The notes: a model not told the origin generated them from the sequence alone. A DNA stretch of 64,000 bases from Oceanispirochaeta sp. (GCA_963663385.2 CAXXXD010000003.1:704001-768000), one strand, 5' to 3'; numbered from the stretch's first letter, positions 23,919-56,167 are shown. Numbers and translations: made by a program.

Positions 23919-24305
23919 CGAACACATTTTGTACTTCTGGTTCTTTCATAATTGCCAGATGATTTAGTAGGTTTTAGGGTTTTGATACGGGTTGATTGAT
24001 GCTCACACTACACTGATTATCAATCTTTGACGCCGGTTGCGGCTGGCAGAAGTGAAAATAAGGGAATTCGCCTTCACCTACGTTTATTAAGATATTCTTG
24101 CCTGATATGGCATCGGTGATTTACAAAATGCTGTAGACATAACAAGAAAATGATACTGTCGTCGCTACAGATCACATTTCTTGCAGAGATACAGAATGCT
24201 GATAAATAGTTCTTTCTTAAAAACAAATTACTGTTTAAAATAAGTCTGCAAGAAAAGCGCCTGTACCTGTCCTTCGGCCAGGCCGCTCCGCAGCATATTT
24301 TGGCG
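23913..24305 (+). repeat. ORF-less cassette, copy 2
   Basis: Tandem 393-bp repeat of copy 1; near-identical to copies 3 and 4. Confidence 0.9.
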
Positions 24306-24311
24306 TTATAT
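24137..24311 (+). other. attC site, long family (175 bp)
   Basis: ACATAAC-aagaa-AATGATAC ... GCATATT-ttggc-GTTATAT. Confidence 0.9.
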
Positions 24312-26864: not shown

Positions 26865-28853
26865 ATCGGGTAGCCAGAGGCTTTTGACCTCCAGCCCCCA
26901 CACCACCCTGCAAGCGGGTCCGCACAGGGCGGTTCACTCCATGGAGCAAACGAAACTATAATTTGATCATGTGTAGCCCTGGATTTTACACCAGAGGGCC
27001 TTAATATTGATCAATCCTTGCTCTTCCAACCATTTATTGGACATAGCGGCATTGGTTGCATAGCCTTTTGACAGATGCCAGTAGGACTTACTACTTGCTC
27101 CTGTCATAATGGCAAAATCTTTCGGAATACCCAGCTCCATCAGTTTCCTGACTTTTGTTCTGGGGTAACGCCACTGTTTCCAGTAGCACATACGGATTCT
27201 TCTTCTCAGCCATTCATCAATTGATTGTAGAGGTCTGTAATATTGGGAAATACCATAATAGTTCATCCACCCCCGGATATACTCGTTAAGTTTCCGGAAT
27301 CGATATTCCATTGATACCCCCCAAGACCGTCTTGTCAAATGCTTTAACTGATATTGAAACTCCCGAAAGGATGATTCAGTCCATCGGATTTTCTTACCCT
27401 TGAAAGTGAATCCCAGAAAACTGCATTCGGAGATTTTACACACCTTGCTTTTCTTCTGGTTTACAACCAATTTTAACCTGCGACTGAGATAATCACTTAT
27501 TTCAGTCAATATAGCTTTTCCATCACACAGGCGTTTTGATACAATTAATGCATCATCTGCGTAACGTGCAAAGCACAGGTTTCTCCGTTCCAACTCCTTA
27601 TCGAAATTATCAAGAAGGATATTGGAAAGTAGAGGCGACAATGGCCCTCCTTGAGGAGTCCCGATTTCAGTAGGGATTTTAATCCCATCCTTGTCCATAA
27701 TACCGGCTCTCAGGTAGCGGCCAATCAATTTCAGGACTGATTTGTCCCGGACTTTCTTAGCCACACAATGCATCAGAATATCGTGATTTACCGTATCAAA
27801 GAACTTTTCCAAGTCCAGATCAACTGCATACTTGTATCCCGATTTAACATAGGTATTTACCTGTCGTACTGCTCCGTGAGCCGATCTTCCCGGCCTGAAT
27901 CCAAAACTGCTTTCCGAAAAATCCGAATCGAATAGAGGATTCAAAACCTGTGAAATAGCCTGTTGGATAACCCTGTCTAAAATAGTGGGAATACCCAGCA
28001 TTCGCATACCTCCGGATCTCTTGGGGATTTCCACCCTGAGCACCGGAGAGGGTACATAGTACCCCAAAAGCAAAGCTTGCTTGATTTTACTCCATCTTCT
28101 GCGTAGATATTCCGGAAATTTCTCAATAGTCATGCCATTGACTCCCGGACTGCCGCCATTGCGTTTGACCTGTTTCCAGGCCTTACGCATGTTTTCAGAT
28201 GATAAAATCAAATCCATCATAGAATCGTTCAAGGCTGGTTTCTCCATAATTCGCCAAAAGTTATTTCGGCCAGTGCTAAAATTGTTCCTTTGAGAACCAT
28301 AAGGCTCCTCCTTGTGAAATGTTCAGGCCTTCACCGTGAACCGGACATTACTCCGGGCGTTGGTTACTATGCCTTCTGCTGACTTCTGCCTGCTAATCAA
28401 CGAGATTGCTCCCGTTGATGCTATACCGTGCTTTTAAACCTGTGACGACTTATTTGTACTCAAGATAATCTTGCTCATTTCCAGAGTGTCACCCTCTGAA
28501 AAGCCGGGGATTGGTTTTCCGGTTCCCTACCGGATTCTCAGTTTAAAAGAACACATTACCGCCCCGCAGACAGATCTCCCCGAATAAGACTGTACACTGT
28601 CCCCGGACAACCCTGTGATTTACCCTATTCCATACCCACGGGGCATCGTCATCATTGGCTGACTCGCCTCTGGAACTGAGCCTTCTATCACATTCTTGTA
28701 CATGGGCTCCCGGTTTTGCATTCCGGCTTCCTCCAGACATTCCCTCGCGGAAATGCCCTTGCCTTCAGCTAACAGTTGGTATAGCATGTTCACTATACGT
28801 GGGCACCTGTAGAGGACTTTTACCTCATTAGCGTACAGCCATGTCGGGCGTAC
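26865..28853 (-). mobile_element. Group IIC-attC intron, full length (1989 nt)
   Basis: 5' end GTACGCCCGACATGG, 3' end CTACCCGAT, short domain V GAACCGCCCTGTGCGGACCCGCTTGCAGGGTGGTGTG with CGC triad; inserted antisense in attC R''; removal restores ACATAACAAG. Confidence 0.93.
26967..28247 (-). CDS. ltrA: Group II intron reverse transcriptase/maturase, no endonuclease domain
   Basis: RMLGIPT, SFGFRPGRS, DLEKFFD, GTPQGGPLSP, RYADD, X domain; 426 aa. Confidence 0.95.
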   Translation of the reverse strand: MEKPALNDSMMDLILSSENMRKAWKQVKRNGGSPGVNGMTIEKFPEYLRRRWSKIKQALLLGYYVPSPVLRVEIPKRSGGMRMLGIPTILDRVIQQAISQVLNPLFDSDFSESSFGFRPGRSAHGAVRQVNTYVKSGYKYAVDLDLEKFFDTVNHDILMHCVAKKVRDKSVLKLIGRYLRAGIMDKDGIKIPTEIGTPQGGPLSPLLSNILLDNFDKELERRNLCFARYADDALIVSKRLCDGKAILTEISDYLSRRLKLVVNQKKSKVCKISECSFLGFTFKGKKIRWTESSFREFQYQLKHLTRRSWGVSMEYRFRKLNEYIRGWMNYYGISQYYRPLQSIDEWLRRRIRMCYWKQWRYPRTKVRKLMELGIPKDFAIMTGASSKSYWHLSKGYATNAAMSNKWLEEQGLINIKALWCKIQGYT

Positions 28854-29047
28854 CAAGAAAATGATACTGTCGTCGCTACAGATCACATTTCTTGCAGAGA
28901 TGCAGAATGCTGATAAATAGTTCTTTCTTAAAAACAAATTACTGTTTAAAATAAGTCTGCAAGAAAAGTGCCTGTACCTGTCCTTCGGCCAGGCCGCTCC
29001 GCAGTATATTTTGGCGTTATGTAGAACTAAGGTGTTAAAAGGTAAAT

Positions 29048-29653
29048 ATGAAAAAAGTAACGATTATAATAATTATATTGATAACACAAAGCATCTTTTC
29101 ACAATCTCAAATCAGTAGCATACGAGAATATTTAAAAGCAAATAGTTATATGCCTATTATTGAAGTACCTTTAGAATCAACAAAACTATATATATACGCT
29201 AAAGAGTCTCAGAAAAGCCAGATAAATAGTGATTATTTCTTAAACGGTGATGTATACCTTGTCAATATTGATAATGATGAAAGAATTAGATCTCATGTCA
29301 TATGCGAACTTGCTAGTAGTGCTGTTGAAGTATTCACCAATAATAAGGAATTCATAATAAATCCACGTAGTAGAAGCGAGATACGAGGATCAAGAGAAAT
29401 AATATATTATGATGAAAGATTCAATAAATTTACAATTTTCATTTCAGAATGGATGTTTCTAAGTGGCTTTAAAATTATTGATGAGTATATTGTCTGTAGC
29501 CTAGGAAACCATCCAAAATATAAGTATTTAGTGATAAATAAATATACTGGAGAAGAAATACCTGTAGATCAATTAAGCACAACCTTAAGAAGTAGTTATT
29601 CACTAGCAATACGTAATGGAAATAATTGGAATTTATATGATTACCATAAATAG
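29048..29653 (+). CDS. Cassette hypothetical exported protein
   Basis: AAGG RBS; signal peptide MKKVTIIIIILITQSIFS. Confidence 0.7.
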   Translation: MKKVTIIIIILITQSIFSQSQISSIREYLKANSYMPIIEVPLESTKLYIYAKESQKSQINSDYFLNGDVYLVNIDNDERIRSHVICELASSAVEVFTNNKEFIINPRSRSEIRGSREIIYYDERFNKFTIFISEWMFLSGFKIIDEYIVCSLGNHPKYKYLVINKYTGEEIPVDQLSTTLRSSYSLAIRNGNNWNLYDYHK

Positions 29654-29676
29654 TAAAAATCTTTATCAAATGATAA

Positions 29677-30366
29677 GTGGGTAATATGAATATTGAAAAG
29701 AAGAGAATAATTTATTGTATAATTCTATTATTTATAAACTTTGTAAATATTTATTCTGAAAATATAAAAGGACTAAATATTGAGATTTTTGAATTATTAA
29801 ACGGTGTATGGGATACAAATAACTCGAAACCTAGATCTGTAGATGAAACATATAGTTGGGGAAAAGATAATTCATATAGAGATGGCATTATAATTGATTT
29901 CGGATATGCAAGAATTGAGTTCAATGGTTTAAGTTATGGCTATACAATTGAGGACGTAAATCAACTGAATGATAATATCATCGAATTTTCAGGTTATTTC
30001 ACTGTATATGATGCAAGAATTGAAAAAATTGTTAATTCGCCTGCAACAATACATATAAAGACTAATTCACTAAGTGAAATGGAATTCATTGAAGCTGAAG
30101 CTGGCGAGTATAATTTTCAGTTAAGATTCGGAGATGCGCCAAATATCAGAATCCATGAAATTGAATTCGTGGACAAAGAAATCATTATTTCTGAAGAAAC
30201 AATATTAATGACACTGAAAAGGGATGAGTATATATACTCTGCTTCAATTGAAAATACTGTAAAAGCACATGTTATAAAAAGTTATGATTCAAAATTTTTT
30301 GTGTTAACAGAAAATGGCGATATTGGATGGATAAATCAGGATAATGTACATTTCTCTAACGAATAG
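29677..30366 (+). CDS. Cassette hypothetical exported protein (possible C-terminal SH3-like segment)
   Basis: Signal-like N-terminus; C-terminal VLTENGDIGWI. Confidence 0.6.
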   Translation: MGNMNIEKKRIIYCIILLFINFVNIYSENIKGLNIEIFELLNGVWDTNNSKPRSVDETYSWGKDNSYRDGIIIDFGYARIEFNGLSYGYTIEDVNQLNDNIIEFSGYFTVYDARIEKIVNSPATIHIKTNSLSEMEFIEAEAGEYNFQLRFGDAPNIRIHEIEFVDKEIIISEETILMTLKRDEYIYSASIENTVKAHVIKSYDSKFFVLTENGDIGWINQDNVHFSNE

Positions 30367-30377
30367 AGAATAGTACT

Positions 30378-30550
30378 ACATAACAATAAAATGATGCAGT
30401 CGAAGCTATAGATCACATTTCTTGCTGATATTGCTTCAATCAAGAATTATTGCTTCTCAAAAAGAGAATAGCTGTTTAGAATGAATGCAAGAAAAGCGCC
30501 TATACCTGTCCTTCGGCCAGGCCGCTTCGCAGCATATTTTGGCGTTGAGA
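30378..30550 (+). other. attC site, long family (173 bp), followed by IS1182 at GTT
   Basis: ACATAAC-aataa-AATGATGC ... GCATATT-ttggc-GTT; CTACATAAC complements cassette start GTTATGTAG. Confidence 0.9.
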
Positions 30551-30624
30551 CTGTAGAAAAAGGTAAGCGGTAATTCTCTCCATCTTGCGTGATTTCGAAA
30601 TGATTATATACTCCATGAAAAATC

Positions 30625-30921
30625 ATGGAGGAACCTAATATGACCAACTGGAATTGGCCTGAATTAATCGAAGAACAAAAACAGAGCGGGAAAACAATTT
30701 CTGAGTTCTGCGCAGATAAAGGAGTTCACTATACATCTTTCTACAAGAATCGAAAAAAATTAAAGAAAAGCAGTTTTATTGAAATCAAACAGAAAGCCCC
30801 GGTATTACAGCCACAAAACCCCACAATGATACTCAGATACAAGGATTTCTCATTGGATCTGGCATCAGGTTATAACAGGCAATCCCTGATAGATCTTCTG
30901 AAGATTCTGAGAGAGTTGTAA
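30625..30921 (+). CDS. tnpA: IS66 TnpA accessory protein
   Basis: HTH QSGKTISEFC; first ORF of IS66. Confidence 0.85.
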   Translation: MEEPNMTNWNWPELIEEQKQSGKTISEFCADKGVHYTSFYKNRKKLKKSSFIEIKQKAPVLQPQNPTMILRYKDFSLDLASGYNRQSLIDLLKILREL

Positions 30922-31265
30922 TGTTTGTTGACCTGAACGAATACCGGATCTTTCTGAGACCCGGCACGACAGACTTAAGAAAAGCGATCAACGGATTATC
31001 TCTGTTTATCCAGAATGAAATGAATCATGATTTATTCGCCAAATCGCTATTCCTCTTTTGTAACCGGCAGAGAAAACTTCTGAAAATTGTCTACTGGGAT
31101 AATACCGGTTTTTGTCTCTGGCAGAAGAGACTGGAAGAGAACAGATATCCCTGGCCGGAAACAGATGAAGATGCTAAAGAGATCAGCATGGATGAATTGA
31201 AAATGCTCCTGACGGGAATAGACTTTTTCAAAGCGCATAAAAAATTATCATATTCCCGTATTTAG
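30921..31265 (+). CDS. tnpB: IS66 TnpB accessory protein
   Basis: TDLRKAINGL, LFLFCNR, KIVYWD.TGFCLWQKRLE. Confidence 0.92.
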   Translation: MFVDLNEYRIFLRPGTTDLRKAINGLSLFIQNEMNHDLFAKSLFLFCNRQRKLLKIVYWDNTGFCLWQKRLEENRYPWPETDEDAKEISMDELKMLLTGIDFFKAHKKLSYSRI

Positions 31266-31304
31266 AGATTTTATAATTATAGAAACTTTGATAGAATTCC
31301 CCGT

Positions 31305-32867
31305 ATGGAGAATGAAGAACAGCATTTAAGAGAACAACTTGATGCACAAAAAATAGAAATTGCTGAACTGAAAAGACTTAATGCCATTCTCCAGGAGCAA
31401 GTAGCAAAACTGAACCTCCTGCACTTTGGAACAAAATCAGAGAAGATAACTGCCGAAGATAAGAAACAAGCTTCTCTCTTCAATGAAGCGGAAGATAGTG
31501 CTTTTGCTCAGAATGATGAAGAGCAGGAGAAAAATGTTATTGAAACGGTTGAGGTCGGTTCCTACAAGAAAAATATTAAAAAATCCGGCCGGAAACCTCT
31601 GCCGGCAGATCTGCCGAGAGAGATCGTGGAATATGATATTCCGGATAAAGATAAGATCTGTGCCTGCGGAACAGAAAAGACCTGTATCGGTGAAGATGTT
31701 TCCGAGAGAGCAAAAATTATTCCGTCAAAAGTCGTTGTTATTCAGGAACGTAGAAAAAAGTACTCCTGCAAGAATTGTGAAGGGACGACTCTTGATGAAG
31801 CTGCTGTACAGACCGCAGAAGGAGCAAAGCATCTGGTCGCGGGCAGTATTGCCGATGAAAGCCTGCTCGCTTGGAGTATAAGCGAAAAGTTTGAGTTCGC
31901 TCTTCCTTTCTACAGGCAATCAAAACGGTTAAACCAGATAGGCATACCGATCCCCCGGGCGACATTGAGCAATCTTACGATAAAATCGGCAACGGCATGT
32001 AAGCCTCTATATGATTTGCTGAAAGAAAACATTAAATCCGGTTCCATTATTAATGCCGATGAGACGAGAGTTCAGGTTCTAAAGGAACCGAAACGAAAAG
32101 CTTCAGATAAATCATGGATGTGGGTCTTTCTCAGAGGAGATCCCGATAAAAAATGTGTCATATTTCAGTATGAGCAAGGCCGATCCCATGCAATTCCGTT
32201 GGATTTCTTGGAAAATTACTCTGGCTGGGTTCAAACTGATGATTTTGAGGCCTACCATACTGCCCGAAAAAAAGTTGATGGAGATATAAAGCATGTCTTA
32301 TGCTGGGCCCATGCCAGAAGAAAGTTCTTCCAATATTGGGAATCAACCAAGAAAAAAGATGCAGAAGCAAAGCAAATTCTCGACCTGATAAAGGATCTGT
32401 TTGAACTGGAATCATTACGGGATAATTATTCGCTAAAAGGGTTTCATAAACAGCGACAAAATAGAGCAGAACCGATACTAGATAAGTTACAGAAAAAACT
32501 GACGAAGCTTTATCCTCAAGTACCTCCTTCTTTAGAGTTCGGTAAGGCGATGAAGTATACATTGAGCAACTGGGAGCAGTTGGTTCTATATCTGAAAAAT
32601 CCTGTTTTGACTCCTTCGAACAATAGCGCTGAAAATGCAATCAGACCCTTCGTAATCGGGAGAAAAAACTGGCTTTTTGCCGGAAGCCCGAAAGGTGCTG
32701 AATCATCGGCAATTCTGTACAGTCTCGTTGAATCTGCGAAGATGAACAATCTTCCAGTTTATGCTTACTTGTACTTTATCTTCCGGGAATTGCCCTGCTG
32801 TGAAAAACAGAGTGATTATGAAAAATTACTTCCCTATAATTTAACTGCTGAAGATATTGCAATCTGA
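31305..32867 (+). CDS. tnpC: IS66 TnpC DDE transposase
   Basis: FGTKSEK, ADET, CWAHARRKF, NNSAENAIR, GRKNWLF. Confidence 0.95.
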   Translation: MENEEQHLREQLDAQKIEIAELKRLNAILQEQVAKLNLLHFGTKSEKITAEDKKQASLFNEAEDSAFAQNDEEQEKNVIETVEVGSYKKNIKKSGRKPLPADLPREIVEYDIPDKDKICACGTEKTCIGEDVSERAKIIPSKVVVIQERRKKYSCKNCEGTTLDEAAVQTAEGAKHLVAGSIADESLLAWSISEKFEFALPFYRQSKRLNQIGIPIPRATLSNLTIKSATACKPLYDLLKENIKSGSIINADETRVQVLKEPKRKASDKSWMWVFLRGDPDKKCVIFQYEQGRSHAIPLDFLENYSGWVQTDDFEAYHTARKKVDGDIKHVLCWAHARRKFFQYWESTKKKDAEAKQILDLIKDLFELESLRDNYSLKGFHKQRQNRAEPILDKLQKKLTKLYPQVPPSLEFGKAMKYTLSNWEQLVLYLKNPVLTPSNNSAENAIRPFVIGRKNWLFAGSPKGAESSAILYSLVESAKMNNLPVYAYLYFIFRELPCCEKQSDYEKLLPYNLTAEDIAI

Positions 32868-32985
32868 TCCATCAGTCCTAAAATGCTGTCAATGTGGGAA
32901 GAATTACCGCTTACAGAAAAAGTCACCTTTTCTACAGCTCTCAGCCAAAACATGGTAAAATTCTATAAAAGGGAGGTTTTCAATA

Positions 32986-34530
32986 ATGGCCAGATATAAA
33001 GAGTATTCTTATGCCCAAACAATGATGATCCCCGTAAGCTTTGAAAAACAGATTTTACCAGGAACATTCGAATATACATTATGCCATCTGATAGACAATC
33101 AAATTGACATTGATATGTCAGTTTTTGAAAACCACTACGAAAATGATGAAACCGGAGCTCCCGCCTACGACCCTGCCATCCTCTTAAAAATAGTCCTTTA
33201 CGCCTATTCAAAAGGAATAAACAGCAGCAGAAAAATTGAACAATTATGTCGGGAAAACATAGTCTGTATGGCACTGGCCGCCGATTCCAGACCCCACTTT
33301 ACAACAATCGCCGACTTTATCTCTTCTCGTCACAAAGAGTGCCAATCCCTCTTTACCATGATACTCTCTGTTTGTTACTCCCAGGGACTCATTGGAAAAA
33401 ACATGTTTGCCATAGACGGCTGTAAAATCTCCTCCAACTGCTCTAAGGAATGGAGCGGAACCAAAGCTGAACTATTTGCCAAAACAAAAAAAATAGAGAA
33501 ATCCGTAAACTACCTGATTGAGAAACACAAAAGCACGGATATTAAATGGGATGATAAGAATCAGCGGAAAAAAGAAAAGCAGGCCATCAAAAAGCTAAAG
33601 ACTAAAACAGATAAAATCTACAAATGGCTTGATACCCATTATGACCGTTTCGGGAGTCAGGATCAGCCCATTAAAAGCAATATAGTTGATAACGAAAGCG
33701 CTAAAATGTCCACCGGACATGGCGTTATACAGGGATATAATGGCATTGCTGCAGTAGACGACAAGCATCAATTAATTATATTTGCCGATACATACGGTGA
33801 TGTAAACGAATCAGGACACCTAACAGAGATACTTGAGGGGATTGATAAGAGCTGCAAAGAATCTCACATAGATGACCACATCTATAATAATGTCACCATA
33901 ACTGCTGATACAGGCTTTCATAATAAAAAGAACATGCAGATGATCTGCGAGAAGAAGATAGATGCCTATATCCCGGACAATCAGTTCAGAAAAAGGCACG
34001 TAGCCTTTCAGGATGCCGGCAGATACAAAAAGAAAGTCGCCAACTGGAAACCGGAAAAAGGAAAACACTATTTTAGTCCGGAAGACTTTTATATGGATAC
34101 GGCAACCAACCAGCTTATCTGCCCTGCCGGTCATGCCATGTGGCTGAAATCCCCCAACTTCAGAAGCAATGACGGTCGGTATACCGGAAAGTCCTATCAA
34201 GGGCATATACGCAATTGTCGTGACTGTAAACTTCGTTCAAAATGTATAAGAAAGGAAACGACAAAGGCCCGTCAGGTTGCCATACTGAAGGAAGTGCCGG
34301 ATGGAAAAGGGAGCAATCCCATGGCCGGTATGAAGGAGAAAATTGATACGCCCTATGGACGATCAGTTTATGCAAAACGGATGAGTACGGTAGAACCTGT
34401 ATTCGGACATATTGCCGGAATGAAAAAGCTGAATCGCTTTACTTTACGGGGTACGGAAAAGGTCCGGACACAGTGGTTGTTGTACTGTATGGTGCATAAT
34501 ATCGGGAAAATCCAGCAGTATAGTGCGTAG
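32986..34530 (+). CDS. IS1182-family transposase
   Basis: GAPAYDP, SSRKIE, PHFTTIADF, AIDG, QGYN, ADTGF, VEPVFGHI. Confidence 0.92.
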   Translation: MARYKEYSYAQTMMIPVSFEKQILPGTFEYTLCHLIDNQIDIDMSVFENHYENDETGAPAYDPAILLKIVLYAYSKGINSSRKIEQLCRENIVCMALAADSRPHFTTIADFISSRHKECQSLFTMILSVCYSQGLIGKNMFAIDGCKISSNCSKEWSGTKAELFAKTKKIEKSVNYLIEKHKSTDIKWDDKNQRKKEKQAIKKLKTKTDKIYKWLDTHYDRFGSQDQPIKSNIVDNESAKMSTGHGVIQGYNGIAAVDDKHQLIIFADTYGDVNESGHLTEILEGIDKSCKESHIDDHIYNNVTITADTGFHNKKNMQMICEKKIDAYIPDNQFRKRHVAFQDAGRYKKKVANWKPEKGKHYFSPEDFYMDTATNQLICPAGHAMWLKSPNFRSNDGRYTGKSYQGHIRNCRDCKLRSKCIRKETTKARQVAILKEVPDGKGSNPMAGMKEKIDTPYGRSVYAKRMSTVEPVFGHIAGMKKLNRFTLRGTEKVRTQWLLYCMVHNIGKIQQYSA

Positions 34531-34731
34531 GAATACGGAAAAGTGCTAAAGAATGGGTATAGCGTTGGATAAAACCAATTGTAGTTGAATATAGCCGGTT
34601 TTAATCGGATTTAATATTGAAATCAAAGAGATGAATGATTTTTCCAAATGAGTGCTTTCAGGGGAGCCTTGAAAATACCCAGTTTGAGTTTTTCTACAGT
34701 CTCGTTATACAACAAGAATCAAGGATCACAT

Positions 34732-36057
34732 ATGATATCTTCGGAATTCAAGAATAATTTTCTCAAAAGGATTACTAGAATTGATTCAATAAATGTTACA
34801 GCTACACAATGTATTGAAAAAGATCCTAATACGATAAATGGAACAGCAACTATCTTTTTTGAGAATGAAATTTTAAAAATAGTTTTTTATCCAACAAATG
34901 ATGAATTAGATTTTTTCTACCCTCCATATGAAATTGGAGCAATAATAAAAAAAGAATATTATTATAAAATTACTTTCAGCGACAAAAATGGAAAATTATG
35001 GGAAACAGATCGATTTCTGCCAAAAAGAACAATTTCTTTACCAAAAAATGAAGTTATTTGGAATTGTTCTATTAGATCGATAAAAACAATATTCTCAATG
35101 CAGGATGTGGGTGCTGCAAAAAAGTTAAATTATTTGACTATATCAGTTAAAAATAATTTAGAAATTCCAATTAATGACTACTATTGTCAAAAATGTTTAA
35201 CCGATAATTTTACATTTACAGATAATAATGTTGGAATTTGGCATATAAGGGAAGAAAATGAAAATTTCAAAATAATGAATTTAAATGGAAGCACAATAAT
35301 TAAGTTCGAAACAAATGATTTATTTCCTCAAAAGACAATAGCATCTTTACTTGGTACTATATCCTTTATGTGGGGAGAAAAAATTGAATATGAATATATT
35401 GAATATCTATATGATGATAAAAAAAGTATAGAATTATTTAATTCTCCAAATGCTGATAATAATAAGCTCAATACACCACTTGTAATGAAAACTCATGAGC
35501 ATAAAGATAATTATGACAAACTTTTTTATAAGTATTTCAAATTTATTGATAATGAAGCGAATAAGTTGATATATATACAAAATCAAATTATTGCTTCTAA
35601 TAAAACAATATTGGAAGTTTATTCATTAGTACTTTCAACTTGTATCGAAAATTTGATTAAAAATCGGTTTGATATGAAAGATAAAAAGACTATCACTGAA
35701 GTTGATTCAATAATAACATTAGTCAGAAAAAAGAATATTGAGGAAAAAATAAAAAATAGAATTTTAGGATCTTTAAATTCAATACGTAAATCACCCAAAA
35801 GAGCAAAAGACATTCTAAATGAATTATTGAACAACGGAGTCATTACAAAAGAGCAAAAAAAATCATGGGACAAACTTAGAAACTCTACAGCACATGGTTC
35901 ATATGATTTTGAGGTTTCAGATCTCTTAAAATTAACCAATGATGTATTAACACTTTATTATTTGATAATCTTTGAAATTATTGGATATAAGGGAGAATAT
36001 GTAAATTACTCAAAAAAGAATTTCCCTGTAGAATTAAATTATGCAAATGATGAATAA
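34732..36057 (+). CDS. ApeA-like HEPN domain protein (putative anti-phage RNase)
   Basis: C-terminal WDKLRNSTAHG (Rx4H); AAGGA RBS before ATG 34732 (the track start 34648 lies inside IS1182). Confidence 0.7.
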   Translation: MISSEFKNNFLKRITRIDSINVTATQCIEKDPNTINGTATIFFENEILKIVFYPTNDELDFFYPPYEIGAIIKKEYYYKITFSDKNGKLWETDRFLPKRTISLPKNEVIWNCSIRSIKTIFSMQDVGAAKKLNYLTISVKNNLEIPINDYYCQKCLTDNFTFTDNNVGIWHIREENENFKIMNLNGSTIIKFETNDLFPQKTIASLLGTISFMWGEKIEYEYIEYLYDDKKSIELFNSPNADNNKLNTPLVMKTHEHKDNYDKLFYKYFKFIDNEANKLIYIQNQIIASNKTILEVYSLVLSTCIENLIKNRFDMKDKKTITEVDSIITLVRKKNIEEKIKNRILGSLNSIRKSPKRAKDILNELLNNGVITKEQKKSWDKLRNSTAHGSYDFEVSDLLKLTNDVLTLYYLIIFEIIGYKGEYVNYSKKNFPVELNYANDE

Positions 36058-36063
36058 ATTGTT

Positions 36064-36160
36064 GTATAACAAAGCCTTGCAACTGTCATGGCAAACTGTC
36101 ACAGAAAATGCGTGGCATTTTCTGCGCCAATTCACCATGCAGCTGAAGGCGACGTTATAT
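36064..36160 (+). other. attC site (97 bp)
   Basis: GTATAAC-aaagc-CTTGCAAC ... GCTGAAG-gcgac-GTTATAT; GTTGTATAAC complements cassette start GTTATACAAC. Confidence 0.9.
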
Positions 36161-36396: not shown

Positions 36397-37680
36397 ATGT
36401 GTCAAAAGGAAGATCGCATGCATGTAGCACGCATCATGGCCAACGAAGGCCATACTCAAAAGTATATCGCTGAGTATCTTGGTGTCAGCGACCGGATGGT
36501 AAGGAAATACCTGAATCCGGACTTCAGAACCCGTCCCAGGAAATCCCGGGAAAGCATCCTTAAACCATTCTACCCCATAATAGAAGATACCTTGGAAAAT
36601 GATCCATACTTCAACCTCGTTTATCTTCATGAGAGACTACAAAACTCCGGTTATTCTGGAAAAATGACAATCCTACGTGACTATGCCCGGAAGTACAGGA
36701 AGAAACTGATTGAGAAAGCAGTAATCCGCTTTGAAACAGAGCCGGGAAGACAGGCCCAAGTTGACTGGAAAGAATGCGGAAAAATGGAGATTGATGGCAA
36801 ACTTCAGAAAGTATATGCATTTGTCATGCTGCTGGGATATAGTAGGATCCCGTTTGTCCTTTTCTCCTTGGATATGACCTCGCCGACATTGCTCCAAGCC
36901 CATCTGATGGCATTCCGGTTCTTCGGTGCTGTTCCGAAGGAAATTCTTTACGACAACATGAGAACAGCCTGGTACAACAACGGCGGTGTCTGGCACGTGA
37001 ACTCAAAGCTCCTGGCCTTTGCTTCAGCCTGTGGTTTCACTCCTCTTCGCTGCCAAGTTCGTAGACCGCAAACTAAGGGAAAGGTAGAGCGTTTTATCGG
37101 TTACCTGGGCCACAACTTCTTGATCCGTGAAGAAGCAATGAAGAGCCGCTCAATAAACGATTTAAACCTGACTGTCTCCAAATGGATCAAAACAGTAGTG
37201 GAACAGCAGATGAGCCAATTTAAACAGACTCGAAAAGAGAGATTTGAGTACGAAAGGCAGTTTATGAACCCTTGGAACCCTGAGGCAGCTCCAGATGTAA
37301 GGCTGGTTAAAGAACTGCTTGTCTCCAGAGAAGGGTTTATTCGTTTTGAATCAAACAAGTACAGCATTCCCGCGGACTTCATAGGACAAGTTGCGACACT
37401 GAAAGTAGATACGCTGGCAAGAACTGCCGCTATCTTCATTGATGGGGCCCCTGTTAGAACCTTCAAGCTTCTGACAAAAGGTGCGAAATTAGAATCTATC
37501 CGAAAGATTGATACCGACTCACTGGTTAAACGCTGGAAGAAAGAGAATCGCATGACAAAAAGGAATGTCGTTGCCAGTGTCCCGGAAATAAAGAATACTC
37601 CCAGGTCATCATTGATGCATACAGAGGTTGATACACGCCATCCTGAAAGCTACGACAAGCTTATGGGGGTAACAGCATGA
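36397..37680 (+). CDS. istA: IS21 transposase IstA
   Basis: RFETEPGRQAQVDW, ILYDNM, PQTKGKVER. Confidence 0.95.
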   Translation: MCQKEDRMHVARIMANEGHTQKYIAEYLGVSDRMVRKYLNPDFRTRPRKSRESILKPFYPIIEDTLENDPYFNLVYLHERLQNSGYSGKMTILRDYARKYRKKLIEKAVIRFETEPGRQAQVDWKECGKMEIDGKLQKVYAFVMLLGYSRIPFVLFSLDMTSPTLLQAHLMAFRFFGAVPKEILYDNMRTAWYNNGGVWHVNSKLLAFASACGFTPLRCQVRRPQTKGKVERFIGYLGHNFLIREEAMKSRSINDLNLTVSKWIKTVVEQQMSQFKQTRKERFEYERQFMNPWNPEAAPDVRLVKELLVSREGFIRFESNKYSIPADFIGQVATLKVDTLARTAAIFIDGAPVRTFKLLTKGAKLESIRKIDTDSLVKRWKKENRMTKRNVVASVPEIKNTPRSSLMHTEVDTRHPESYDKLMGVTA

Positions 37681-38441
37681 ATGTACTGCAGGAGACCATA
37701 GAGATCAGGATGAACGACTTAGGGCTGGAGTTTATGGCGGCGGGGTTGGAGAGCTTCCTTGAAGCTCAATCTCACACAGAAAACACTCTCTCTCAGTCAA
37801 TTGCAGACCTATTGGAACTGGAGTACGTTCCCCGTAAGGAGAGAGCTGCAAAAAGCCGTCTGAAGCTCTCTGGAATGCCATCGATCAAGCTATTAGAGGA
37901 CTTCGACCTATCCTGGTTGAAGGGAGGATTGACCGCTGCTCAACTGGCAGAGTTTTCTAGTCTGGCTTTCATTGAAAGAAAGGAAAATCTAGTACTGATG
38001 GGGCCAAGTGGATTGGGTAAAACCCATTTGATGCTAGCTCTGGCTCATAAAGCCTGTCAGAATGGTTATACTGTATGGTATACAAGCTGCATCGATCTGA
38101 TGGAGAATCTGACCCATGCCCGGGAGCAGGGGCGGTTGAAGCGACGGCTTACCTGGCTTAGAAAGCCTCATCTCATCCTTATCGATGAAGTTGGCTACGA
38201 GAACCTGACGAAAGAACAGGCCAACTTGTTTTTTCAGATTGTAAACACCCGCTATGAACAAGGCAGTATGATCATCACCACAAACAAGTCTTTCGGTCGT
38301 TGGGCTGAGATTCTGGATGATGAAGCCATTGCGACAGCGACTATAGACAGGCTCCTTCACCATGCACATGTCCTGAGTCTTAAAGGGGATTCATACCGGA
38401 TGAAAGACCGGTTGAAAATAGGGATCGTTGATCCTGTTTAA
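37677..38441 (+). CDS. istB: IS21 helper ATPase IstB
   Basis: GPSGLGKT, LIDEVGY, ITTN, IDRLLHH, GDSYR. Confidence 0.95.
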   Translation: MNVLQETIEIRMNDLGLEFMAAGLESFLEAQSHTENTLSQSIADLLELEYVPRKERAAKSRLKLSGMPSIKLLEDFDLSWLKGGLTAAQLAEFSSLAFIERKENLVLMGPSGLGKTHLMLALAHKACQNGYTVWYTSCIDLMENLTHAREQGRLKRRLTWLRKPHLILIDEVGYENLTKEQANLFFQIVNTRYEQGSMIITTNKSFGRWAEILDDEAIATATIDRLLHHAHVLSLKGDSYRMKDRLKIGIVDPV

Positions 38442-38617: not shown

Positions 38618-38792
38618 ACATAACAAGAAAATGATACTGTCGTCGCTACAGATCACATTTCTTGCAGAGATACAGTATGCTGATAAATAGTTCTTTCTTA
38701 AAAACAAATTACTGTTTAAAATAAGTCTGCAAGAAAAGCGCCTGTACCTGTCCTTCGGCCAGGCCGCTCCGCAGCATATTTTGGCGTTATAC
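38618..38792 (+). other. attC site, long family (175 bp)
   Basis: Near-identical to 24137-24311; ends GTTATAC. Confidence 0.9.
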
Positions 38793-40881: not shown

Positions 40882-42255
40882 ATGATGAATAATAATACGA
40901 AATATCGAATCGTTAGCCTTTTTAGTGGGTGCGGTGGCTTAGATATTCCTTTTTCAGAAGATAAATATGAATTTGCAGGAGCATATGATAATGATCCTGC
41001 TGCTATTAAATGTTTAAATCATAATCTACGATGCAATGCTAAAGTTCTAGATGTTTTAAGTGAGGACTTTACTCCAGAAATGAAGGCTGTTGGTTCCGCT
41101 GATATTGTACTTGGAGGATTTCCGTGTCAAGGTTTTTCAAAATCAGGTCCTAAAAAAGAGAATGATCCACGAAATAAATTATATAAGTCGATGCTAAATG
41201 CAGTTGATATTTTACAACCAAAAATATTCATTGCAGAAAATGTCGATGGCTTAGTTCAGAATTTCAAGGGATCTTTTGTAGAGCAAATAATAACAGATTT
41301 TAATGAAATCGGATATGATGTCGAGCATAGAATCCTAAATGCAGTAAATTATGGTGTTTCACAATATAGAAGAAGAATATTCTTTGTTGGTAAAAAAAAG
41401 GAATCAAATTCTAAATTTGATTGGCCTGAACCCAAACATGAAGGAAAAAGTAGGAATGGAGAATTCAAAACAAAATGGGATGTATTTGATCGCGATTCGT
41501 TGTTTTTTCAACATGAGATTCTACCTAGCAAAACAATAAAAGATAGTATTGAGGATTTATTAGATATAAAATCCAATATTCCTGATCATATACATTTACC
41601 AATTTCAGAGAAAGATGTTGAGATAATGAAAAATATTGGAGAAGGTAAGAAGTTATGCAATGTAAGATTTTCTAATACATCTGTATATACTTGGAACATA
41701 CCAAAAGTATTTGGAGAGATTTCTGAAAAAGAAAAAGCTATTTTGGAAATAATAGGTAAAAATCGCAGAAAAAAAATATATGGAAATATACCAAATGGTA
41801 ATCCATTATCGATTGAAGTTATTAAGGAATTATCTGGATTTGATATTTTACCAAATGAACTCAATTCTCTTATCGATAAAGGATATTTAAAATTAAAAAA
41901 TAATAAATATGACTTAAAAGGTGCAATGTTTGCTTCTGGAATATATAAAAGACCTAATTGGAATGAACCTTCACCAACTGTTCTTACTGTATTTGATAAT
42001 CCAAGGTTCTTTTTCCATCCATTAAAAAATAGACCATTCACAATCAGAGAAGCCGCTAGATTACAGTCTTTTCCTGATAGTTTTGAGTTTATTAATTCAG
42101 GTATTTCTATAAAGGATGCTTATAGATTAATTGGAAATGCTGTTCCTCCTTTACTTGCTTCTCATTTAGAAAAAGCTATTTTTAACTACTTAAATAAAGA
42201 AGGTTTTAATGAAACTAGAACTGAAAACATTAACATTAACAGAAAAGCTCAATGA
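40882..42255 (+). CDS. DNA (cytosine-5)-methyltransferase
   Basis: SLFSGCGG, GGFPCQGFS, ENV, QYRRRIF, REAARLQSFP, IGNAVPP. Confidence 0.95.
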   Translation: MMNNNTKYRIVSLFSGCGGLDIPFSEDKYEFAGAYDNDPAAIKCLNHNLRCNAKVLDVLSEDFTPEMKAVGSADIVLGGFPCQGFSKSGPKKENDPRNKLYKSMLNAVDILQPKIFIAENVDGLVQNFKGSFVEQIITDFNEIGYDVEHRILNAVNYGVSQYRRRIFFVGKKKESNSKFDWPEPKHEGKSRNGEFKTKWDVFDRDSLFFQHEILPSKTIKDSIEDLLDIKSNIPDHIHLPISEKDVEIMKNIGEGKKLCNVRFSNTSVYTWNIPKVFGEISEKEKAILEIIGKNRRKKIYGNIPNGNPLSIEVIKELSGFDILPNELNSLIDKGYLKLKNNKYDLKGAMFASGIYKRPNWNEPSPTVLTVFDNPRFFFHPLKNRPFTIREAARLQSFPDSFEFINSGISIKDAYRLIGNAVPPLLASHLEKAIFNYLNKEGFNETRTENININRKAQ

Positions 42256-43711: not shown

Positions 43712-46412
43712 ATCGGGTAGCCGGAGGCTTTTAACCTCCAGCCCCCACACCACCCTGCATGCGGGTCCGCACAGGGCGGTTCACTCCATGGAGCAAACGA
43801 AACTATAATTTGATCATGTGTAGCCCTGGATTTTACACCAGAGGGCCTTAATATTGATCAATCCTTGCTCTTCCAACCATTTATTGGACATAGCGGCATT
43901 GGTTGCATAGCCGTAAGCGGTAATTCTTCCCACATTGACAGCATTTTAGGACTGATGGATCAGATTGCAATATCTTCAGCAGTTAAGTTATAGGGAAGTA
44001 ATTTTTCATAATCACTCTGTTTTTCACAGCAGGGCAATTCCCGGAAGATAAAGTACAAGTAAGCATAAACTGGAAGATTGTTCATCTTCGCAGATTCAAC
44101 GAGACTGTACAGAATTGCCGATGATTCAGCACCTTTCGGGCTTCCGGCAAAAAGCCAGTTTTTTCTCCCGATTACGAAGGGTCTGATTGCATTTTCAGCG
44201 CTATTGTTCGAAGGAGTCAAAACAGGATTTTTCAGATATAGAACCAACTGCTCCCAGTTGCTCAATGTATACTTCATCGCCTTACCGAACTCTAAAGAAG
44301 GAGGTACTTGAGGATAAAGCTTCGTCAGTTTTTTCTGTAACTTATCTAGTATCGGTTCTGCTCTATTTTGTCGCTGTTTATGAAACCCTTTTAGCGAATA
44401 ATTATCCCGTAATGATTCCAGTTCAAACAGATCCTTTATCAGGTCGAGAATTTGCTTTGCTTCTGCATCTTTTTTCTTGGTTGATTCCCAATATTGGAAG
44501 AACTTTCTTCTGGCATGGGCCCAGCATAAGACATGCTTTATATCTCCATCAACTTTTTTTCGGGCAGTATGGTAGGCCTCAAAATCATCAGTTTGAACCC
44601 AGCCAGAGTAATTTTCCAAGAAATCCAACGGAATTGCATGGGATCGGCCTTGCTCATACTGAAATATGACACATTTTTTATCGGGATCTCCTCTGAGAAA
44701 GACCCACATCCATGATTTATCTGAAGCTTTTCGTTTCGGTTCCTTTAGAACCTGAACTCTCGTCTCATCGGCATTAATAATGGAACCGGATTTAATGTTT
44801 TCTTTCAGCAAATCATATAGAGGCTTACATGCCGTTGCCGATTTTATCGTAAGATTGCTCAATGTCGCCCGGGGGATCGGTATGCCTATCTGGTTTAACC
44901 GTTTTGATTGCCTGTAGAAAGGAAGAGCGAACTCAAACTTTTCGCTTATACTCCAAGCGAGCAGGCTTTCATCGGCAATACTGCCCGCGACCAGATGCTT
45001 TGCTCCTTCTGCGGTCTGTACAGCAGCTTCATCAAGAGTCGTCCCTTCACAATTCTTGCAGGAGTACTTTTTTCTACGTTCCTGAATAACAACGACTTTT
45101 GACGGAATAATTTTTGCTCTCTCGGAAACATCTTCACCGATACAGGTCTTTTCTGTTCCGCAGGCACAGATCTTATCTTTATCCGGAATATCATATTCCA
45201 CGATCTCTCTCGGCAGATCTGCCGGCAGAGGTTTCCGGCCGGATTTTTTAATATTTTTCTTGTAGGAACCGACCTCAACCGTTTCAATAACATTTTTCTC
45301 CTGCTCTTCATCATTCTGAGCAAAAGCACTATCTTCCGCTTCATTGAAGAGAGAAGCTTGTTTCTTATCTTCGGCAGTTATCTTCTCTGATTTTGTTCCA
45401 AAGTGCAGGAGGTTCAGTTTTGCTACTTGCTCCTGGAGAATGGCATTAAGTCTTTTCAGTTCAGCAATTTCTATTTTTTGTGCATCAAGTTGTTCTCTTA
45501 AATGCTGTTCTTCATTCTCCATACGGGGAATTCTATCAAAGTTTCTATAATTATAAAATCTCTAAATACGGGAATATGATAATTTTTTATGCGCTTTGAA
45601 AAAGTCTATTCCCGTCAGGAGCATTTTCAATTCATCCATGCTGATCTCTTTAGCATCTTCATCTGTTTCCGGCCAGGGATATCTGTTCTCTTCCAGTCTC
45701 TTCTGCCAGAGACAAAAACCGGTATTATCCCAGTAGACAATTTTCAGAAGTTTTCTCTGCCGGTTACAAAAGAGGAATAGCGATTTGGCGAATAAATCAT
45801 GATTCATTTCATTCTGGATAAACAGAGATAATCCGTTGATCGCTTTTCTTAAGTCTGTCGTGCCGGGTCTCAGAAAGATCCGGTATTCGTTCAGGTCAAC
45901 AAACATTACAACTCTCTCAGAATCTTCAGAAGATCTATCAGGGATTGCCTGTTATAACCTGATGCCAGATCCAATGAGAAATCCTTGTATCTGAGTATCA
46001 TTGTGGGGTTTTGTGGCTGTAATACCGGGGCTTTCTGTTTGATTTCAATAAAACTGCTTTTCTTTAATTTTTTTCGATTCTTGTAGAAAGATGTATAGTG
46101 AACTCCTTTATCTGCGCAGAACTCAGAAATTGTTTTCCCGCTCTGTTTTTGTTCTTCGATTAATTCAGGCCAATTCCAGTTGGTCATATTAGGTTCCTCC
46201 ATGATTTTTCATGGAGTATATAATCATTTCGAAATCACGCAAGATGGAGAGAATTACCGCTTACGCATAGCCTTTTGACAGATGCCAGTAGGACTTACTA
46301 CTTGCTCCTGTCATAATGGCAAAATCTTTCGGAATACCCAGCTCCATCAGTTTCCTGACTTTTGTTCTGGGGTAACGCCACTGTTTCCAGTAGCACATAC
46401 GGATTCTTCTTC
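43712..46412 (-). pseudogene. Second group IIC-attC intron insertion: 3' remnant (43712-43912, 46265-46412) split by IS66
   Basis: Same 3' end ATCGGGTAG directly after R'' CCGTATAA (complements cassette start GTTATACGG); near-identical to 26865 onward. Confidence 0.92.
43913..46264 (-). mobile_element. IS66-family element, copy 2 (tnpA 45906-46202, tnpB 45562-45906, tnpC 43960-45522)
   Basis: Proteins identical to copy 1; 8-bp TSD GCATAGCC. Confidence 0.95.
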
Positions 46413-48764
46413 GTAAGCGGTAATTCTTCCCACATTGACAGCATTTTAGGACTGATGGATCAGATTGCAATATCTTCAGCAGTTAAGTTATAGGGAAGTA
46501 ATTTTTCATAATCACTCTGTTTTTCACAGCAGGGCAATTCCCGGAAGATAAAGTACAAGTAAGCATAAACTGGAAGATTGTTCATCTTCGCAGATTCAAC
46601 GAGACTGTACAGAATTGCCGATGATTCAGCACCTTTCGGGCTTCCGGCAAAAAGCCAGTTTTTTCTCCCGATTACGAAGGGTCTGATTGCATTTTCAGCG
46701 CTATTGTTCGAAGGAGTCAAAACAGGATTTTTCAGATATAGAACCAACTGCTCCCAGTTGCTCAATGTATACTTCATCGCCTTACCGAACTCTAAAGAAG
46801 GAGGTACTTGAGGATAAAGCTTCGTCAGTTTTTTCTGTAACTTATCTAGTATCGGTTCTGCTCTATTTTGTCGCTGTTTATGAAACCCTTTTAGCGAATA
46901 ATTATCCCGTAATGATTCCAGTTCAAACAGATCCTTTATCAGGTCGAGAATTTGCTTTGCTTCTGCATCTTTTTTCTTGGTTGATTCCCAATATTGGAAG
47001 AACTTTCTTCTGGCATGGGCCCAGCATAAGACATGCTTTATATCTCCATCAACTTTTTTTCGGGCAGTATGGTAGGCCTCAAAATCATCAGTTTGAACCC
47101 AGCCAGAGTAATTTTCCAAGAAATCCAACGGAATTGCATGGGATCGGCCTTGCTCATACTGAAATATGACACATTTTTTATCGGGATCTCCTCTGAGAAA
47201 GACCCACATCCATGATTTATCTGAAGCTTTTCGTTTCGGTTCCTTTAGAACCTGAACTCTCGTCTCATCGGCATTAATAATGGAACCGGATTTAATGTTT
47301 TCTTTCAGCAAATCATATAGAGGCTTACATGCCGTTGCCGATTTTATCGTAAGATTGCTCAATGTCGCCCGGGGGATCGGTATGCCTATCTGGTTTAACC
47401 GTTTTGATTGCCTGTAGAAAGGAAGAGCGAACTCAAACTTTTCGCTTATACTCCAAGCGAGCAGGCTTTCATCGGCAATACTGCCCGCGACCAGATGCTT
47501 TGCTCCTTCTGCGGTCTGTACAGCAGCTTCATCAAGAGTCGTCCCTTCACAATTCTTGCAGGAGTACTTTTTTCTACGTTCCTGAATAACAACGACTTTT
47601 GACGGAATAATTTTTGCTCTCTCGGAAACATCTTCACCGATACAGGTCTTTTCTGTTCCGCAGGCACAGATCTTATCTTTATCCGGAATATCATATTCCA
47701 CGATCTCTCTCGGCAGATCTGCCGGCAGAGGTTTCCGGCCGGATTTTTTAATATTTTTCTTGTAGGAACCGACCTCAACCGTTTCAATAACATTTTTCTC
47801 CTGCTCTTCATCATTCTGAGCAAAAGCACTATCTTCCGCTTCATTGAAGAGAGAAGCTTGTTTCTTATCTTCGGCAGTTATCTTCTCTGATTTTGTTCCA
47901 AAGTGCAGGAGGTTCAGTTTTGCTACTTGCTCCTGGAGAATGGCATTAAGTCTTTTCAGTTCAGCAATTTCTATTTTTTGTGCATCAAGTTGTTCTCTTA
48001 AATGCTGTTCTTCATTCTCCATACGGGGAATTCTATCAAAGTTTCTATAATTATAAAATCTCTAAATACGGGAATATGATAATTTTTTATGCGCTTTGAA
48101 AAAGTCTATTCCCGTCAGGAGCATTTTCAATTCATCCATGCTGATCTCTTTAGCATCTTCATCTGTTTCCGGCCAGGGATATCTGTTCTCTTCCAGTCTC
48201 TTCTGCCAGAGACAAAAACCGGTATTATCCCAGTAGACAATTTTCAGAAGTTTTCTCTGCCGGTTACAAAAGAGGAATAGCGATTTGGCGAATAAATCAT
48301 GATTCATTTCATTCTGGATAAACAGAGATAATCCGTTGATCGCTTTTCTTAAGTCTGTCGTGCCGGGTCTCAGAAAGATCCGGTATTCGTTCAGGTCAAC
48401 AAACATTACAACTCTCTCAGAATCTTCAGAAGATCTATCAGGGATTGCCTGTTATAACCTGATGCCAGATCCAATGAGAAATCCTTGTATCTGAGTATCA
48501 TTGTGGGGTTTTGTGGCTGTAATACCGGGGCTTTCTGTTTGATTTCAATAAAACTGCTTTTCTTTAATTTTTTTCGATTCTTGTAGAAAGATGTATAGTG
48601 AACTCCTTTATCTGCGCAGAACTCAGAAATTGTTTTCCCGCTCTGTTTTTGTTCTTCGATTAATTCAGGCCAATTCCAGTTGGTCATATTAGGTTCCTCC
48701 ATGATTTTTCATGGAGTATATAATCATTTCGAAATCACGCAAGATGGAGAGAATTACCGCTTAC
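46413..48764 (-). mobile_element. IS66-family element, copy 3 (tnpA 48406-48702, tnpB 48062-48406, tnpC 46460-48022), no TSD
   Basis: Identical proteins; flanks TCTTCTTC vs ACTTTAAA do not match. Confidence 0.95.
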
Positions 48765-55417: not shown

Positions 55418-55451
55418 TGAAAATACCCAGTTTGAGTTTTTCTACAGTCTC
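55418..55451 (+). mobile_element. Orphan IS1182 right end
   Basis: TGAAAATACCCAGTTTGAGTTTTTCTACAGTCTC identical to 34670-34703, again followed by GTT. Confidence 0.9.
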
Positions 55452-55469
55452 GTTATGAATAATTCAGGA

Positions 55470-55808: not shown

Positions 55809-55809
55809 A

Positions 55810-56133: not shown

Positions 56134-56167
56134 TTGACTTTATAAAATTTTAAATAAGCTTCAAATA

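Follow-up and report, generated by a model that had tools for sequence, protein, structure and literature searches.

Attraction to the attC sites of integron gene cassettes has been described for two kinds of mobile element. According to the accessible text of PMC3001079, which cites Tetu and Holmes (2008), the insertion sequences (ISs) of the IS1111-attC group (ISPa21, ISPst6, and their kin) are attC-specific, insert in one orientation, and form a monophyletic subgroup. The same text describes group IIC-attC introns, such as S.ma.I2, which home to attC in a fixed orientation and recognize a hairpin-forming site; both kinds of element insert near the attC 5' end, antisense to the cassettes. 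Transposases of the IS110/IS1111 type are DEDD enzymes guided by RNA, as far as described in the accessible part of PMC11187229. A further point of comparison is IS1272 (TnSha1), a member of the IS1182 family whose targets are hairpin-forming inverted repeats with little conservation of primary sequence, for example, the base of a terminator hairpin (PMC4923244, PMC5678879); in the portion of PMC4923244 available, its insertion leaves the target without a duplication, part of the hairpin is deleted or replaced, and many unrelated hairpins are hit, with the element in either orientation. In the accessible part of a 2024 integron paper (PMC11089894), the IS5 family accounts for 49% of cassette-associated transposases, and only the IS1111 group is cited as attC targeting. 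Here, we focused on a 64,000-nucleotide stretch of DNA from Oceanispirochaeta sp. (GCA_963663385.2 CAXXXD010000003.1:704001-768000; all of it is referred to as the window), in which an IS1182-family element sits exactly at the core triplet of an attC. With a probability of roughly 85%, we think that this element belongs to a large clade of IS1182-family DDE insertion sequences that target the 3' end of attC and make 3-bp staggered cuts around its core triplet. This reading builds on the exact position of the insertions, the 3-bp duplication, the strong association with attC, the single orientation per lineage, and the monophyly of the transposases.

The new elements resemble the IS1111-attC group in that they are attC-specific insertion sequences with a fixed orientation that form a monophyletic subgroup of their family. 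As far as the accessible descriptions of that group go, however, the enzyme is an RNA-guided DEDD transposase there and a DDE transposase of the IS1182 family here, and insertion is at the 5' end and antisense there, whereas it is at the 3' core triplet, mostly sense, and accompanied by a 3-bp duplication here. Group IIC-attC introns likewise home to attC in arrays with a fixed orientation, and a group II intron is also present in the array of the window, but they are retroelements (ribozyme plus reverse transcriptase) that enter the bottom strand in antisense and have neither inverted repeats nor a transposase. With IS1272/TnSha1, the elements share both the family and hairpin-type targets, and the attC targeting observed here is likely related to the hairpin targeting of IS1272; in contrast to what the available text reports for that element, the clade studied here keeps its target whole, duplicates 3 bp, and uses one position of one class of sites in one orientation per lineage. 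The window element is thus a site-specific, attC-homing IS whose enzyme, position, and footprint differ from those of the known attC-targeting elements. We found no description of attC targeting by IS1182-family elements in the open full-text literature, a search that did not extend to subscription journals and ISfinder entries, and the literature found agrees with an earlier note on this DNA, made from the sequence alone, in naming IS1111-attC elements and group IIC introns as the known attC-targeting elements. Integron gene cassettes are thus targeted by a third kind of mobile element, which is apparently undescribed.

The insertion in the window lies between two cassettes of an array (Table 1). 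In the attC upstream of it, the bottom strand (positions 30376-30546) forms a fold in which AAC and GTT pair (z = -2.80; 1/200 shuffles as good), and this attC aligns over its full length with two uninterrupted paralogous attCs at 24139-24309 and 38620-38790. Both of these empty sites read ...GGCGTTATA and have one GTT each, and the sequence to the right of the IS starts with GTTATAC, which shows that the insertion added the IS plus 3 bp. In comparison with the empty paralogues, the attC body is intact up to the triplet, with no target DNA deleted. The earlier note had placed the IS exactly at the attC crossover GTT with duplication of that triplet, such that the upstream attC keeps its GTT and the start of the downstream cassette is regenerated; both parts can be read directly, the right-hand side restoring the original R' core. 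A second right end, an orphan that the note had reported at the GTT of another cassette start, is also real: it matches the IS right end at 34/34 positions, and GTTATGAATAA and a pair of Phd/ParE genes come next.

What spans 30544 to 34706 had been taken as one IS1182. It is an element of the IS1182 family, as proposed, but a composite one, since an IS66-family element of 2352 bp is nested inside it; the 4157 bp between both GTTs thus comprise two elements, and the IS1182-family part measures 1797 bp without IS66. Its transposase scores 281.8 bits against the NCBIfam equivalog model NF033551 (transpos_IS1182; cut-off, 270) and only 38.5 bits against the IS5-family model (cut-off, 140). Pfam matches are DUF772 (PF05598; residues 57-124), DDE_Tnp_1 (PF01609; 238-506), and DDE_Tnp_1_6 (PF13751; 378-509), and an alignment of eight transposase sequences holds invariant acidic residues as well as a conserved Cys-rich insertion with invariant C379, C411, C414, and C420. 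Only DDE/IS1182 models match this protein, and IS110-type DEDD models do not. In an Rfam scan of the window, none of the four intron matches fell inside 32915-34703; all were elsewhere. Members of the IS1182 family are roughly 1.3-2 kb long, and the layout of the window element, a single 514-amino-acid open reading frame (ORF) between terminal inverted repeats within 1797 bp, fits this family. The inverted repeats are complementary at 15/15 positions according to a repeat finder.

To read the GTT copies as a target duplication, it matters where the triplet comes from. If it were carried by the element, which would then insert without duplication beside a GTT, as IS200/IS605 elements do at a fixed tetranucleotide, the flanks would look the same as long as all targets were GTT, and the triplet is nearly invariant while the tips of the inverted repeats vary. 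The two readings part at a metagenome locus, L113, where the element is flanked by TTT/TTT in a clear attC with the core TTTAGGC; its sister at locus L122 (IS 97% identical, 1816/1872 columns) has GTT/GTT. The triplet therefore originates from the target. The triplets are, moreover, direct and not inverted repeats, they lie outside the perfect inverted repeats, and the element encodes a DDE transposase of a family allied to IS5. Staggered-cut target duplications are the rule for DDE enzymes of such families. Carriage of GTT by the element is, in our view, extremely unlikely. With the triplet assigned to the target, the TTT site also shows that a feature other than the G of the triplet determines where the cut is made. 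A duplication of 4 bp was considered as well and is excluded by sites with T or A before the left GTT, since the element always ends in C.

The copies in the own genome were collected by a BLAST search of the element against the 5.3-Mb genome. Five copies are full length, one derivative of 438 bp has an internal deletion, and the other matches are a right-hand part, the orphan right end of 34 bp, and two small fragments. All two-ended elements are flanked by GTT/GTT (6/6), and both lone right ends adjoin GTTAT (2/2). The five full copies are 91.8-98.1% identical to each other (i.e., they differ by 2-8%) and have intact ORFs of 512-514 amino acids; the four copies other than the window element are 1791 bp long. 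Five of the six two-ended elements lie in attCs, two of them called by an automated fold criterion and the other three by a shared 3' half of the attC family and by eye. The conserved attC motif gave seven attC-type matches, of which four are uninterrupted with a single GTT and three run into the IS. In all seven array-borne elements, the left end and the start of the transposase gene stand beside the attC body, i.e., in sense orientation. The genome holds 160,948 GTT, 14,339 YGTTA, and 6,335 YGTTAT sites; with so many GTT and YGTTAT sites on offer, the repeated placement at attC cores is far from chance. The 438-bp derivative (contig C1:26341-26778, minus strand) has no gene and resembles a miniature inverted-repeat transposable element (MITE); it has kept both ends, is flanked by GTT/GTT, and also lies in an attC.

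Relatives of the IS were searched for in 41 genomes of the same class, the own genome included, of which 24 others belong to the same family and 16 to other families. Related ISs with 65-81% nucleotide identity to the window copy were present in 10/24 genomes of the same family, and none was found in the 16 genomes of other families of the class. Left ends in these sister genomes follow GTT in 14/15 cases (one GAT), and right ends precede GTT in 9/9. The tips of their inverted repeats vary (GAGA, GAGG, GAAA, and GATA), and most left flanks are recognizably attC-like. The nearest record in a species-level genome collection is an Oceanispirochaeta metagenome-assembled genome (MAG) with 90% protein identity. 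Members with the same flanks were found in other Spirochaetaceae MAGs, in Candidatus Theseobacter exili (Auribacterota), and on a short contig binned as Micrarchaeota. In a Lysobacterales MAG (locus L041), the element is inverted (AAC/AAC), with two tandem copies separated by a single GTT, at a GC-rich attC. Plasmids contributed little: among 72,556 records, only three, two from Pseudoalteromonas and one from Catenovulum, had matches above 40% identity, the other matches listed being at most 30% identical. A Pseudoalteromonas piscicida chromid holds a full copy behind an attC as well as two right ends, each of the three at GTT, and the Catenovulum copy has the inverted orientation. The clade's host range thus covers at least Spirochaetota, Gammaproteobacteria, and Auribacterota. 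In a protein search, 7,981 family matches had E <=1e-30, among them at least 120 relatives with an identity of 49% or higher; the nearest proteins bear generic names ("IS1182 family transposase"), and no named ISfinder element is among the 120 matches listed.

The attC of the Lysobacterales MAG, which may resemble the attC of aadA cassettes, shows a further peculiarity. Besides the two tandem IS1182-type copies at its core triplet, an IS110-like transposase gene starts within this attC. The site may have been struck by two unrelated attC-homing families.

To extend the comparison, we scanned metagenomes with an alignment of eight transposases. This yielded 538 relatives, of which the best 80 (45-63% amino acid identity) were taken with up to 900 bp of flank; the loci were picked on protein similarity alone, and the ends were located by the conserved repeat core, leaving the flanks unconstrained. 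Both ends were found at 59 loci, with 56 flanked by GTT/GTT, two by AAC/AAC (the same site with the element inverted), and one by TTT/TTT. Another 19 loci gave 20 unpaired ends (18 GTT, 1 AAC, and 1 GTC), and at 2 of the 80 loci no end was found. The consensus of the right flank is GTTAGGC, the classical core site; C stands before GTT in 45/53 cases and A after it in 41/55. Taken over the own genome, sister genomes, and metagenomes, the flanks of other copies, which the earlier note had proposed to tabulate, are nearly all GTT/GTT. The note had named a majority of copies outside attCs with unrelated flanks as counterevidence, and this is not what we observed; in the own genome, five of six two-ended copies are in attCs, with the sixth at a GTT in an intergenic spacer.

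Sixteen metagenome left flanks have the form of a textbook attC that starts at RYYYAAC, ends at GTT, and is 50-66 nucleotides long. In minimum-energy folds, AAC is paired with GTT at dG <=-12 at 20/49 sites, compared with 14/138 control CGTT sites. Local complementarity of the arms exceeds the 95th percentile of shuffles in 24/51 flanks, the duplex energy reaches p <=0.05 in 16/50, the R box is paired in the fold in 26/49, and a box score of at least 11 is found in 16/49 flanks versus 29/509 controls. Over all flanks, these cruder tests reveal a clear enrichment, and at least a third to a half of the metagenome sample is demonstrably in attCs. No consensus structure, and hence no covariance model of attC, emerged from 16 seed attCs aligned with MAFFT; since a pattern-and-fold scan of the genome for attCs mixes true and false sites, no counts were drawn from it.

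To gain an idea about the descent of these elements, we built a maximum-likelihood tree of 85 transposases with a quick method, using midpoint rooting for drawing only. It includes those of the 80 metagenome ORFs that have at least 440 amino acids, eight named proteins, and four outgroups, which are IS1182-family transposases from Sulfurimonas, Sphingobium, Bradyrhizobium, and Alicyclobacillus plasmids. The 81 GTT-type transposases form one clade (SH-aLRT, 100; stem length, 3.26), apart from the four outgroups; long branches meet at the base of the tree, where the exact place of the Lysobacterales protein is unsure. None of the four outgroup elements has GTT/GTT flanks; two of them share the repeat core GAG-N-CTGT. 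Among the four, one is tentatively read as duplicating TGTA and one as duplicating GT at most. Within the clade, three inverted metagenome elements and one element without ends found group together in one subclade (support, 100), whose sister group contains the window IS. As the inverted elements form one subclade, orientation relative to attC is a property of the element and is not random. A heritable orientation, in turn, implies an asymmetric complex on an asymmetric target.

Six loci (L041, L064, L069, L091, L097, and L126) contain stacks of elements or miniature derivatives with single GTTs between them. This suggests repeated insertion at the attC-proximal GTT, for which the bases downstream of the triplet would be dispensable. 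At L064, short MITE-like units follow the IS in tandem at a spacing of about 123 bp.

These observations bear on a simpler account, in which the elements have no true attC targeting and instead combine a preference for a short CGTTA-like sequence with survival in cassette arrays, where insertions are harmless. The bases around the triplet are indeed biased toward C before and A after GTT, one own copy and some metagenome copies are at GTTs outside recognizable attCs, and the array of the window also holds IS66, IS21, and group II intron copies, as would a tolerant region. Yet with 14,339 YGTTA and 6,335 YGTTAT sites available, 7/8 ends or copies in the own genome are at an attC core or cassette start, and no IS end or copy lies elsewhere inside cassettes. 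Neither would a palindrome-free 5-mer preference plus neutrality predict a uniform orientation per lineage. L113 took TTT at the position of an attC core, and the stacks of ISs and MITEs with single GTTs suggest that the same attC was chosen repeatedly. We regard this account as quite unlikely.

Under attC targeting, as we prefer to read the data, insertion would be ordinary DDE transposition with an unusual choice of target, the 3' base of the attC stem. Staggered cuts of 3 bp would be made around the core triplet, normally the GTT that is also the crossover triplet of the integron integrase. Such an insertion would leave the attC with its GTT to the left and a second GTT with the following cassette to the right, and the target would lose no DNA. 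The DDE transposase itself would read the target, probably mainly via the body or structure of the attC upstream, rather than via the triplet or the downstream bases alone.

Several observations weigh against this mechanism or are not accounted for by it. The copy at C3:287670-289460 sits at a GTT in an ordinary spacer after a response-regulator gene, and this spacer does not fold (z = +0.25); in an empty-site comparison for this copy, the sister genomes match only its coding part, at 65-76% identity, and yielded no orthologous empty site. Two loci depart from the usual flanks: at L017 (G005:C1 ~3032542-3034335), GAT precedes the element and GTT follows it, and at L085, GTC precedes the element, whose right end lies beyond the contig. 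A point mutation or an exchange between copies could be the cause. The crude attC tests leave about half of the metagenome flanks unclassified, and several metagenome sites (e.g., L081, L084, and L122) are not attC-like by eye. A test for complementarity between R'' and the outer R' was not significant (7/49 versus 204/2482 controls), likely because the outer R' bases belong to the next cassette. The form in which the site is recognized may be a duplex, a cruciform, or a hairpin of single-stranded DNA.

The integron integrase is a rival candidate to the transposase as the inserting protein. It could place a circle of the IS, with the ends joined across one GTT, into an attC or a stray GTT in the manner of a cassette. 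A cassette in an integron has G|TT at either boundary and is located between one attC and the cassette that follows; the insertion shows the very same pattern, which a 3-bp duplication also explains. The array, from about 23.9 kb to 56.2 kb of the window, contains no integrase gene; the genome encodes an intact integron integrase on another contig (C2:1688005-1688940; TIGR02249, 381 bits versus a cut-off of 265). One cassette found at five GTT junctions suggests recombination in this genome, and the occasional insertions at GTTs outside attCs may resemble secondary-site integration. The IS differs from a cassette, however, in that it has no attC of its own (its last 141 nucleotides fold no better than shuffles; z = -0.48, 56/200 shuffles as good) and that it encodes an intact DDE transposase and ends in perfect inverted repeats. 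Inverted repeats are also present in the four outgroup IS1182 elements, none of which is flanked by GTT/GTT. Crossover after the first base, with a GTT donor and a TTT target, predicts TTT on the left and GTT on the right, whereas the variant core of L113 has TTT on both sides. The subclade with inverted orientation is also explained more easily by an asymmetric transposition complex. Insertion by the integrase is thus very unlikely in our opinion.

A different question is whether the integrase moves the element once the transposase has inserted it. In all 59 two-ended metagenome loci, the left tip begins with three purines; with the IS in place, GAG or GAA comes after the GTT of the upstream attC, which therefore still fits GTTRRR. 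The IS and the next cassette then stand between two attC crossover points, which makes their joint excision, and with it the hitchhiking on the downstream cassette that the earlier note had inferred, geometrically possible in principle. We can imagine, as a tentative and rather doubtful extension, that the transposase reads the folded attC (hairpin or cruciform) like the integrase does and cuts at its crossover triplet and that the composite of IS and cassette is moved by the integrase. The full IS copies of the own genome have diverged by 2-8% and are all intact, whereas the IS66 copies are nearly all 99.9-100% identical; this is compatible with spread as composite cassettes and does not prove it.

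Logan contigs from three public runs (two studies) contain two junctions that are absent from the assembly. In one, an attC end of the 175-nucleotide family is joined to the start of a multi-copy cassette; in the other, position 30546 is joined back to 29019, as in a circle- or tandem-like form of the cassette 29019-30546. Such junctions are compatible with composite-cassette spread, but they cannot be assigned to one locus, since the attC end (30503-30546) is common to paralogues over its last 19 nucleotides; the partner sequence is present five times in the genome, and the contig data give no frequencies.

Table 1. Coordinates of the IS1182-family element, its target attC, and associated features, in positions of the window
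Feature	Position	Strand	Basis or remark
Upstream cassette ORFs	29048-29653 and 29677-30366	+	Before attC 30378-30546
attC of upstream cassette, 169 bp	30378-30546	+	Inverse core ACATAAC at 30378-30384; ends in the duplicated GTT
Left target-duplication copy GTT (R' core triplet of attC)	30544-30546	+	Direct reading; empty paralogous attCs have a single GTT
Left inverted repeat GAGACTGTAGAAAAA	30547-30561	+	Read directly; preceded by ...TTTTGGC-GTT
Outer 16 bp of IS1182-family element, severed from the remainder by IS66	30547-30562	+	Other copies are contiguous across 30562
Nested IS66-family element, 2352 bp	30563-32914	+	tnpA 30625-30921, tnpB 30921-31265, tnpC 31305-32867
Rest of IS1182-family element	32915-34703	+	Transposase gene 32986-34530 (514 aa)
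Right inverted repeat TTTTTCTACAGTCTC	34689-34703	+	Read directly
Right target-duplication copy GTT, then ATACAAC	34704-34706	+	With 34707-34710, GTTATAC, the original R' core
Downstream cassette	34707-36156	+	ORF 34732-36057, no Pfam match; own attC 36066-36156
Orphan 34-bp right end plus GTT	55418-55454	+	GTT starts Phd/ParE cassette 55521-56133; Pfam
53-bp internal fragment of the same IS	56155-56207	+	90.6% identity to query positions 121-173; end of cassette array

The nested IS66-family element has imperfect inverted repeats of 25 nucleotides beginning with GTAAGCG, and its TnpB and TnpC have Pfam matches. It is flanked by an 8-bp duplication, AGAAAAAG, at 30555-30562 and 32915-32922 and has entered the IS1182-type left end 16 bp from the tip, which has probably crippled the window copy, the intact transposase gene notwithstanding. 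With the two parts rejoined (30547-30562 plus 32915-32934), the left end contains an inverted self-copy 5-6 nucleotides after the left inverted repeat and could form a hairpin with a stem of about 15 bp. This palindrome is kept in the closest relatives (L006-L009) and missing from more distant members of the clade, and we dropped it as a component of targeting for that reason. Neither a sigma-70 promoter facing outward from the right end of the IS nor a promoter at the left end after IS66 was found. In the genome as a whole, the IS66-family element yields 15 BLAST pieces with 88.7-100% identity, of which 14 are at least 99.9% identical. The array holds a tandem pair of copies (43960-46202 and 46460-48702), and pieces extend to contig ends (start of C3 and end of C4), as expected from a recent burst by which the assembly was also broken.

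The remainder of the cassette array contains other mobile elements. An IS21-family pair, composed of an IstA-like ORF with an rve domain (427 amino acids) and an IstB ORF (254 amino acids), occupies 36397-38441, between the attCs at 36066-36156 and 38620-38790, where it interrupts one of the copies of the multi-copy cassette. Another array cassette contains a group II intron in antisense (26967-28754, minus strand), with a reverse transcriptase/maturase scoring 401 bits on TIGR04416 and domains D1-D4 at 28326-28754, and two more group II intron fragments are located at 43712-43781 (minus strand) and 52411-53031 (plus strand). Among the cassette genes, we found a C-5 cytosine methyltransferase (40882-42255), an Eco57I/MmeI-like restriction-modification enzyme (48711-51152), a Fic protein (51368-52333), and the Phd/ParE pair (55521-56133), a cargo of defense and addiction-type content. 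The multi-copy cassette has the same start (ATATCGAACAC...) after GTT at five places, three in the window (23915, 26637, and 36157) and one each on C1 (minus strand, 37715) and C2 (minus strand, 1687455), suggesting a multi-copy cassette and integrase activity. Two of these five starts are preceded by an identical sequence that is not an attC, one of them right beside the integrase gene. The sequence beside the integrase gene looks like attI, and the place on C1 may be a second attI-like site.

Integron arrays are a main route by which bacteria trade adaptive genes, and the two kinds of parasite described as homing to their sites both do so by unusual chemistry, one with an RNA-guided DEDD enzyme and the other with a retro-homing ribozyme. 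If the reading given here is true, a classical DDE transposase able to locate a single nucleotide position in a site that is mainly defined by its fold would solve the same problem in a third, independent way, and the clade would offer a tractable model for the way in which an enzyme of the cut-and-paste type reads DNA structure. Its near absence from clinical plasmids may explain why the clade went unnoticed. Because the elements and their miniature derivatives split attC sites, software for finding integrons can mis-delimit cassettes where they occur. And if composites of IS and cassette are indeed moved by the integrase, a DDE transposon would spread horizontally between arrays and hosts with integrons as its carrier.

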